Assembly (NCBI GenBank): GCA_964016885.1
Contig: OZ024741.1
Coordinates: 51,274,001 to 51,338,000, forward strand
Source: Eledone cirrhosa
Lineage: Eukaryota
Reading direction: 5' to 3'
Length of the DNA stretch: 64,000 nucleotides
The notes beneath the pieces are model-generated. The model searched no databases and had not been told where the DNA came from. It saw nothing but the letters and a program-made list of their open reading frames with translations. Each line of letters begins with the position of its first letter. Position 1 is the first letter of the stretch. Positions 30,861 to 31,038 of this stretch are shown piece by piece. The position numbers were made by a program, and so were the translations under genes.

Positions 30861-31038
30861 GAACAAGTATGACCCTGACGGCAGAACTCAAGCCGTTTCG
30901 ACGGCTAATTAGCCGTCGAAACGGCTTGAGCTCTGCCGTCGGGGTCATACTTGTTCCTATTACCCACTCTACTACCCTAAGTATTGAGTACTTTGGTGCG
31001 TTATGGTCCATCTGGTTCCTTACCACATTTCCTTCGTT
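30861..31038. mobile_element. Miniature fold-back derivative of the Hydra-like PLE
   Basis: Palindrome centred on GGCTAATTAGCC (~30908); right arm matches 11930-12054 and ends at the same CCTTCGTT-(TA)n junction. Confidence 0.88.

Follow-up and report, generated by a model that had tools for sequence, protein, structure and literature searches.

The ends of Penelope-like elements (PLEs) of the Hydra clade, and those of a 178-bp miniature insertion related to them, are probably set by two conserved bulged hairpins in the leader of the element, in what would be a twin priming of the (TA)n target; this reading is drawn from the comparison of sequences. Two end sites, a pair of hairpins, a fixed offset of the one from the other, a UAU-type overlap with the target and microhomologies at the junctions are all directly observed. 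The miniature (hereafter the mini) was found in a 64,000-nucleotide stretch of Eledone cirrhosa DNA (the window), which also carries a large trimeric PLE of a sister subfamily. The fixed ends were already known; the duplicated hairpin tracking both of them appears to be new. The coordinates of the features are collected in Table 1.

Table 1. Features of the window related to the mini, the trimeric element and the other fold-backs (positions are those of the whole window)
Feature	Position	Strand	Remark
Mini insertion, asymmetric pLTR fold-back of a sister subfamily	30861..31038		between (TA)n tracts
Mini, short arm	30861..30910	-	from End A (+16 relative to the cut) to AATT within hammerhead stem II
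Mini, long arm	30907..31038	+	AATT to hammerhead stem III, cut site (30940), 81-nt tail, End B (+98)
Mini, junction	30907..30910		self-complementary (palindromic) AATT common to both arms
Hairpin 1 copy in the mini's tail	30966..30991	+	
Mini of a second Hydra-type family, non-overlapping arms	41379..41489		arms of 57 nt (antisense) and 54 nt (sense), with 17 nt lacking in the middle
Another mini of the second family, complete hammerhead, 15-nt inverted arm	30698..30839		hairpin 30777-30797
Fold-back mini of a third family, short arm ends ~8 nt before hairpin position	30376..30647		hairpin 30444-30422 (-)
Fold-back mini, fourth family; short arm stops 6 nt short of the hairpin	48209..48446		hairpin 48388-48410
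Fold-back mini of a further family	13636..13796		hairpin 13693-13672 (-)
Hydra-clade PLE insertion (trimer)	1483..12052	-	units 1483-5012, 5013-8540, 8541-11932 + inverted pLTR arm
ORF, 717 aa, RT + putative C-terminal GIY-YIG-type endonuclease	2686..4839	-	RWR, DKT, CxCx5C, no CCHH
ORF of unit 2, open, 717 aa	6214..8367	-	
ORF of unit 3, open, 717 aa	9742..11895	-	
Type I hammerhead, U3-A8 core variant (5113-5107)	5013..5124	-	predicted cut after 5030
Hairpin 1, starts +26	4979..5004	-	End A site 8 nt before; copies 8507-8532 (-), 11981-12006 (+)
Hairpin 2, starts +104	4903..4926	-	End B site 6 nt before; copy 8431-8454 (-)
"Tail", 81 nt from End A to End B	4932..5012	-	
Inverted pLTR arm, 123 nt, ends at End B	11930..12052	+	joined to 5'-truncated body
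Relic starting at End A (+17), mini's subfamily	62041..62101	-	
Relic of another subfamily, starting at +15	47827..47871	-	two bases nearer the cut
Degenerate relic, weak match	63495..63540	-	

The trimer is flanked by (TA)n tracts (1429-1482 and 12053-12106) and has the organization of an endonuclease-bearing (EN+) PLE, with tandem and partial-tandem units, a pLTR, an inverted 5' copy and a tail at one end. Its single ORF encodes a TERT-related RT: the 717-aa protein has 82 relatives at 33-54% identity, and the top Foldseek matches of its predicted model (pLDDT 93) are TERT structures (E 5e-8). The Pfam search of the query protein gave no match, the PDB sequence search only two weak unrelated matches, and the search of a viral collection no relative. 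A weak Pfam GIY-YIG match was obtained in three of ten aligned relatives (best E 0.014) and none on the query; the alignment reveals the motif VIY...YIG with conserved R617, H621, E676 and N689. The pLTR contains a hammerhead whose three-stem U3-A8 fold is present in the MFE structure (z 0.16, so that energy alone gives no support), and this core variant has been described in PLEs (PMC4209133). Its predicted cut base C17 is 5030 on the minus strand, and further copies in the trimer have predicted cuts at 1499 and 8558; the terminal copy has lost one G at the ribozyme cut (1496).

As in the Hydra clade, the protein shows an RWK-type motif (R37-W38-R), DKT in place of DKG (D117-K118-T119), a CxCx5C linker (C572, C574, C580) with no CCHH, and CxxC and CxH around the endonuclease E and N (C670-x-x-C673, C698-x-H700); between VIY and YIG there is only C595 and no cysteine pair. 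Insertion into (TA)n is seen both in the window and in public sequencing runs. By this motif set and target the element is assigned to the Hydra clade as a putative new member, the published consensuses having been compared by eye. Naiad and Chlamys do not fit, the endonuclease-like part being C-terminal and a hammerhead being present. Units 2 and 3 of the trimer are identical and carry alleles that are rare in the runs, while unit 1 differs from them by five events and carries the common alleles; the trimer is therefore not a simple rolling-circle product of one template, and that origin was rejected for the insertion as a whole. It is possible that the identity of units 2 and 3 stems from a later duplication or from an assembly effect.

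The mini, flanked by (TA)n on both sides, is an asymmetric inverted repeat (fold-back) of the pLTR, with arms of 50 nt and 132 nt. Its long arm matches the pLTR of the trimer at 94.7% over 132 nt (BLAST E 1e-54), i.e. with seven substitutions, the same subfamily variants occur in both arms, and ORF sequence is absent. We therefore rejected an internal deletion of the trimer as its origin, and take a sister subfamily to be its template; at the marker position 5033 the mini has the A>G form that is in the majority in the runs (2.32 of 3.15 million summed depth in run X1). Hairpin 2 is absent from it, as are the hammerhead core and, for stems I and II, the 5' side. A copy without hairpin 2 would not regenerate End B, so the mini would be a dead end rather than a self-copying family. 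As an inverted repeat it is not a non-LTR retrozyme, in which repeats carrying an entire type I hammerhead apiece would follow one another head to tail. A MITE would have terminal inverted repeats and many identically built copies; the arms of the mini are asymmetric, and the joints listed for the four runs differ between copies. The mini is likely an abortive, twin-primed insertion of a Hydra-clade Penelope-like retrotransposon.

Both ends of the trimer lie at defined points past the ribozyme cut. End A (1483, equivalent to 5013) is at +17, or up to +20 with the shared TAT, and End B (12052, equivalent to 4932/4933) is at +97/98, or up to +100, a TAT overlap with the target being present at each; the original prediction had placed them about 17 and about 100 nt past the cut on opposite strands, which agrees with these values. 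It had also held that the mini shares both termini with the trimer, and both insertions do sit at the same two pLTR sites between (TA)n tracts. Two small corrections apply: at End A the mini begins one base further in (+16), and at End B, where the likeness had been called exact, one extra T precedes (TA)n in the mini. Three relics had been thought to start at a similar point. The one at 62041 does so, the one at 47827 belongs to another subfamily and starts two bases nearer the cut, and the one at 63495 is degenerate and a weak match, its alignment score being reached by 8 of 2000 shuffles (uncorrected for scanning the window).

The same two sites stand out in public data. Four runs (X1, X4, X6 and X21, out of the 23 listed) were mapped to positions 4770-7199, with bin edges placed at both ends. 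Loose (TA)n ends pile up at 4930 and 5010 in all four, among the best-supported ends listed (326 and 61 contigs, respectively, in X1, 4 and 3 in X4, 3 and 1 in X6, and 8666 and 3356 reads in X21, where another 1177 reads end at 4943, resembling a variant of End B); minor end sites may occur among the 971 further loose ends of lower support. From bin 4851-4931 to bin 4932-5012 the mean depth rises 30- to over 100-fold in each of the four runs, and depth over the tail and the ribozyme greatly exceeds that over the ORF, so short copies probably dominate; in this mapping diverged subfamilies are lost at 85%, and summed contig depth is not equal to copy number. X21 is a CATG/AATT digest, its reads starting on CATG and ending on AATT sites. 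A pile of 7042 read ends at 5063 in this run was therefore rejected as a cDNA stop at the mini junction and ascribed to restriction; the depth of X21 is biased likewise, and the AATT junction of the mini is not visible in it. A joint between End A and End B on opposite strands (4930-5010; 31 reads, 2 starts) possibly reflects neighbouring insertions, with almost no TA between them.

What the ends are measured from is another matter. The ribozyme cut, from which the original prediction had counted, lies at a constant distance within the family and fails across families, where the ends are tracked by two downstream hairpins. We mapped 33 microsatellite junctions, 24 in 16 public loci and 9 in the window, with 153 references that were anchored on hairpins; the test covers 170 nt on the upstream side and extends downstream as far as hairpin 2. 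In 32 of the junctions the distance to the start of the following hairpin is -2 to 11 nt, with a mode of 8 nt (12 junctions); the single outlier (L038) is 55 nt away. While 79 of 274 TAT/ATA sites (29%) are located within 2-14 nt of a hairpin, 28 of the 33 junctions (85%) are, and after collapsing by hand to 24 family-end entries 21 remain in range (p 3e-9). The standard deviation of the position of End A (n=11) is 3.2 nt relative to the hairpin versus 13.3 nt relative to the ribozyme cut, and that of End B (n=9) is 1.5 nt versus 8.9 nt; not included here are the outlier and three entries for which no cut site is available, the first hammerhead descriptor having missed the motif in many loci. 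Across families the distance to the cut ranges over 15-59 nt for the one end and 86-114 nt for the other. As this distance varies while that to the hairpin is nearly fixed, it is the hairpins and not the ribozyme that track the ends, and the cut was rejected as a ruler across families.

The hairpin has the bulged consensus RCUC-Y-stem-loop-R-UH-GAGYAC(U). Ninety related loci were compared: 78 metagenome stretches, the best among 370 confirmed ones, and 12 loci taken from genome bins. Among the 58 relatives whose leader extends at least 170 nt upstream, 36 have two hairpins, 20 have one (some of these leaders being 5'-truncated) and two have none, against a background of five matches in 249 kb of ORF sequence on both strands; the 64-kb window itself contains 13 matches. 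The spacing is 55-83 nt in 34 strict pairs, and in the window element, where the hairpins are 78 nt apart, it matches the length of the 81-nt tail. By eye, the published Hydra consensuses carry the motif as well, and one of them, Hydra-1_Ajap, starts 2 nt before hairpin 1.

The stem covaries. Of 135 GAGYRC anchors, 22 without a 5' partner were dropped and the rest were reduced to 82 family-level motifs, the 5' side being chosen by the RCTC word alone, with about three of the 82 mis-anchored yet retained. The Y:R pair is Watson-Crick in 78 of these (52 C-G and 26 U-A; shuffled mean 43.5), and the next two stem pairs are so in 54 and 47 (shuffled 23.8 and 20.3), a pattern seen only with a 2-nt bulge. 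For hairpin 1 alone the Y:R pair is Watson-Crick in 30 of 31 motifs, and a tree of the proteins from 45 families, built without reference Hydra sequences, gives about 4-5 joint changes; hairpin 2 varies little, 36 of 39 being C-G. By energy the support is weak: folded alone, hairpin 1 of the window has z -0.82, and in the MFE fold of the whole window leader it is not formed, the two motifs pairing with each other instead. Rfam gave no match at the gathering score to the hairpin or the leader in eight loci, and for the window the 150 matches listed, of 229 by E-value, are all below the gathering score, with none over the pLTR or the mini. We found no description of the hairpin pair or its link to the ends either in Rfam or in the PLE literature searched, which for the most part did not include subscription papers and supplementary figures, and a duplicated hairpin tracking both ends across the Hydra clade appears to be undescribed.

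The layout of the mini is not peculiar to its family. Scanning the window revealed that unrelated hammerhead families, too, have left fold-backs between (TA)n tracts that are laid out in this way (Table 1), and the two defined end positions on opposite strands that had been predicted hold in the window, in the four runs and in other Hydra families. Additional hammerhead-plus-hairpin minis or relics of this layout are located at 56602-56695, 12537-12820 and 14368-14498, the last having (TG)n on one side, and three minis are adjacent at 30376-31038. In one public locus, L089, an arm (6253-6355) ends at +1, the base that follows the ribozyme cut, and the run joint 5029-5074 is alike, as though the template were at times a cleaved RNA. 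Hairpin 1 contains the stop points of several End B arms (L089, L001, the window copy at 41379, and joints 4976 and 4993). One repeat of L089 resembles, by eye, the published pLTR of Hydra-2_Amil. Loci L079-L090 are Hydra PLEs with (TA)n flanks in bacterial genome bins, probably a contamination from an animal host.

Each arm, when read inward from its flank, is antisense to the RNA, which is what priming of a cDNA by each target strand would give. In the mechanism that we propose, the template would be an uncleaved tandem or circular transcript, because the trimer's long arm, which starts at +17, continues through the ribozyme site. Each hairpin would be bound by one RT-endonuclease molecule, the (TA)n tract would be nicked on both strands, and each 3' end would pair with a UAU(A) located 5-8 nt 5' of a hairpin. 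Two cDNAs, either of them short or kilobases long, would then be extended from the two target strands, both running the same way along the RNA. Such same-sense cDNAs could anneal to each other only at complementary or palindromic spots, which would account for the GTC/GAC, the AATT and the junction palindromes in general, and repair would leave an inverted asymmetric insertion with the tail in its longer arm. The original prediction had both strands of (TA)n primed at two internal RNA sites; such priming has been observed in vitro for another PLE, Poseidon (PMC11167929), and would apply here too. It also had the two copies joined whatever their length and pointed to microhomology at the joints, and indeed arms from 15 nt to 10.4 kb are found, with GTC/GAC at 11930-11932 joining the 5'-truncated body of the trimer to its inverted arm and AATT at the junction of the mini. 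The overlapping arms of the mini and the trimer need either two RNAs or strand displacement.

Some insertions have starts in the direct orientation, which twin priming alone does not predict. In five full-length relatives a direct start at a hairpin abuts (TA)n (L003:965, L009:988, L035:2939, L040:472, L085:2885), and of six cases in which a (TA)n tract is followed by the sense leader, five start in this way. These starts could come from second-strand priming on TATA of the cDNA, from cleavage at the DNA level, or from later insertion into the UA site of the leader. Three of them, L009 (unit length, A-to-A), L035 (B-to-B) and L085 (A-to-B, with the tail repeated at both ends), fit an explanation that we consider unlikely, in which the hairpins are read on DNA, either cDNA or an extruded intermediate, and the endonuclease cuts about 8 nt upstream, so that the ends are cut sites and not priming sites. 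In the test of the folding strand, sense RNA or cDNA, the inner stems do not decide (12 G-U versus 15 A-C), and in the literature the tail has been ascribed to endonuclease-mediated resolution (Craig 2021, PMC8557442), while the D. virilis endonuclease was cited as needing the tail to cleave plasmid DNA (Frangieh 2024, PMC11167929). Yet both sites are starting points of inverted arms of freely varying length, the spacer that separates the two halves of the hairpin covaries and differs in length, unlike in a double-stranded recognition site, and the Poseidon RT starts at the tail boundaries in vitro (PMC11167929).

The palindromes invite an explanation by a single priming event followed by snap-back self-priming, the first TAT microhomology then serving to join the second end. 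Both arms of the mini stop at the palindromic AATT, several other fold-backs are likewise symmetric about a palindrome, a symmetry that snap-back would also give, and self-priming has been proposed for such junctions (PMC3846280). Against it, End A starts an arm of 10.4 kb in the trimer and End B one of 123 nt, with different stop points, and arms that do not overlap, as in the window copy at 41379-41489, L089, L001 and the opposite-strand run joints 4976/5016/5029/5032 to 5060-5074, cannot derive from self-copying, so that pure snap-back is ruled out for those copies. Snap-back is thus excluded as the general route, and we give it little chance as the explanation of the ends, though for single symmetric copies such as the mini it is possible.

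Just as improbable, in our estimation, is that UA-rich patches pairing with (TA)n set the ends by themselves and that the hairpins serve otherwise, in translation, RNA stability or packaging. Most junctions do have a 2-8 nt TAT/ATAT overlap with the target, positions -3 to -8 before the hairpins are A/T-rich, and in most families the ATG follows hairpin 2 after about 40-50 nt. But nine TAT/ATA sites are present in the pLTR of the window element and the two main ends fall at the two that precede hairpins, by 8 and 6 nt, the others, including a 6-nt run at 5125-5130, being absent from the main end sites listed; the excess of junctions over TAT/ATA sites near hairpins given above speaks in the same direction. 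The AT-rich patch before each hairpin is conserved too, and the effects of hairpin and patch are not separable by sequence alone. Finally, that the ends are measured from the hammerhead cut, or that the mini is a self-propagating MITE-like family, is very improbable, for although the offsets are constant within the family (+16/17 and +98) and the pLTR-only depth is about 20-fold or more above the ORF depth in X1, the offsets vary between families as given above, the junctions differ between copies, that of the mini being absent among the 15 joints listed (of 34), and hairpin 2 is missing from the mini.

The window contains other structures of interest. One fold-back between (TA)n tracts (27793-28427), about 600 nt long and with a tail of 40 nt, in which our scans found no hammerhead or hairpin, may represent another PLE clade, and two more fold-backs (21014-21371 and 33069-33288) have a minimal hammerhead stem III and a 70-nt tail with a possibly decayed hairpin. 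Inverted repeats of 310 nt with a U3-A8 hammerhead-like motif are located at 62571-63340, with a related copy at 37846, and a 1.4-kb segment with 105-nt terminal inverted repeats (52586-53996) has hammerhead-like motifs in opposite orientation on both sides (52227, 54363). Tandem 459-nt units split by (TA)n (28450-30038) reverse at a near-perfect 225-nt palindrome (29709-29933). There are also two minisatellites, of 42 bp in 19.7 copies (42223-43051) and of 33 bp in 74.8 copies (43635-46101).

The hairpins bear on how PLEs, the sister group of telomerase, choose their start sites and come by their tails and inverted ends. The in vitro study of Poseidon located two start sites and, in the parts covered here, named no repeated positioning signal (PMC11167929). 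With a duplicated hairpin that is short, covaries and keeps a fixed distance to both ends, the mechanism becomes directly testable, and one model would cover both the tail length and the junction palindromes. Annotators, moreover, gain a rule for the ends of Hydra elements in microsatellite-rich genomes, where such minis are dense.

In telomerase, a short primer-pairing patch lies at a fixed distance from an RNA stem. The predicted protein of the window element folds most like TERT; the Hydra element would differ in having two anchors, an endonuclease and kilobase-long copying. As a tentative extension, the hairpins may form a duplicated anchor like that of telomerase RNA, each holding one RT-endonuclease subunit with a primer-pairing site about 8 nt upstream; a two-hairpin cassette of about 120 nt might then be the complete cis signal for two-strand, target-primed insertion of whatever RNA lies upstream into (TA)n, and might explain the tail, inversions and junction palindromes of PLEs generally. 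Twin priming itself is known from LINE-1, where two primers at one target site yield an inverted, truncated insertion joined by microhomology, one primer annealing at the poly(A) end and the other at variable internal sites. In the Hydra element, by contrast, both sites are internal and fixed.

An optional tail of 30-40 bp and inverted 5' copies are standard features of PLEs (PMC8557442, PMC3846280), so the two fixed ends are the known "tail" phenomenon, and the original prediction had rediscovered a known pattern. With the Hydra clade as described by Craig et al. 2021 (PMC8557442) the trimer shares the single ORF, the RWK-type motif, DKT, CxCx5C without CCHH, CxxC/CxH around the endonuclease E and N, the pLTR hammerhead and the (TA)n target. 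It departs from that description in its unit of 3.5 kb, most members being under 3 kb, in its U3-A8 core, and in its 81-nt tail as opposed to 30-40 bp, in line with the hairpin spacing of 55-83 nt in the relatives; the parts of that paper covered here make no mention of the hairpin pair or its link to the ends. For Poseidon of Anolis (PAc), it has been shown in vitro that both target strands are nicked and extended, that two internal RT start sites bound the tail, that RNA 3' of the starts is needed, and that ribozyme cleavage is dispensable (Frangieh et al. 2024, PMC11167929). Unlike the present element, Poseidon belongs to the Penelope/Poseidon clade, its starts are inside the ORF rather than in a non-coding leader, and its target is AT-rich but not (TA)n and not homologous to the start, whereas here the primer overlaps by 2-8 nt; no repeated positioning motif was identified in the parts of that report covered here (PMC11167929). 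The Penelopes of the D. virilis group and of Adineta vaga (PMC2377424, PMC3846280) likewise have partial tandems, an inverted 5' pLTR, an optional tail and palindromes or microhomology at the inversion junctions, the junction palindromes being read there as antisense self-priming (PMC3846280). They also include solo ORFs with flanking direct tail repeats, like L085, and they differ in having tails of 31-34 bp and visible target-site duplications (PMC2377424, PMC3846280). Non-LTR retrozymes, as described in bioRxiv 10.64898/2026.07.22.740005, are similar in being short, non-coding, hammerhead-bearing derivatives of the pLTR, but they are head-to-tail tandems with complete ribozymes, whereas the mini is a head-to-head fold-back without the hammerhead core.
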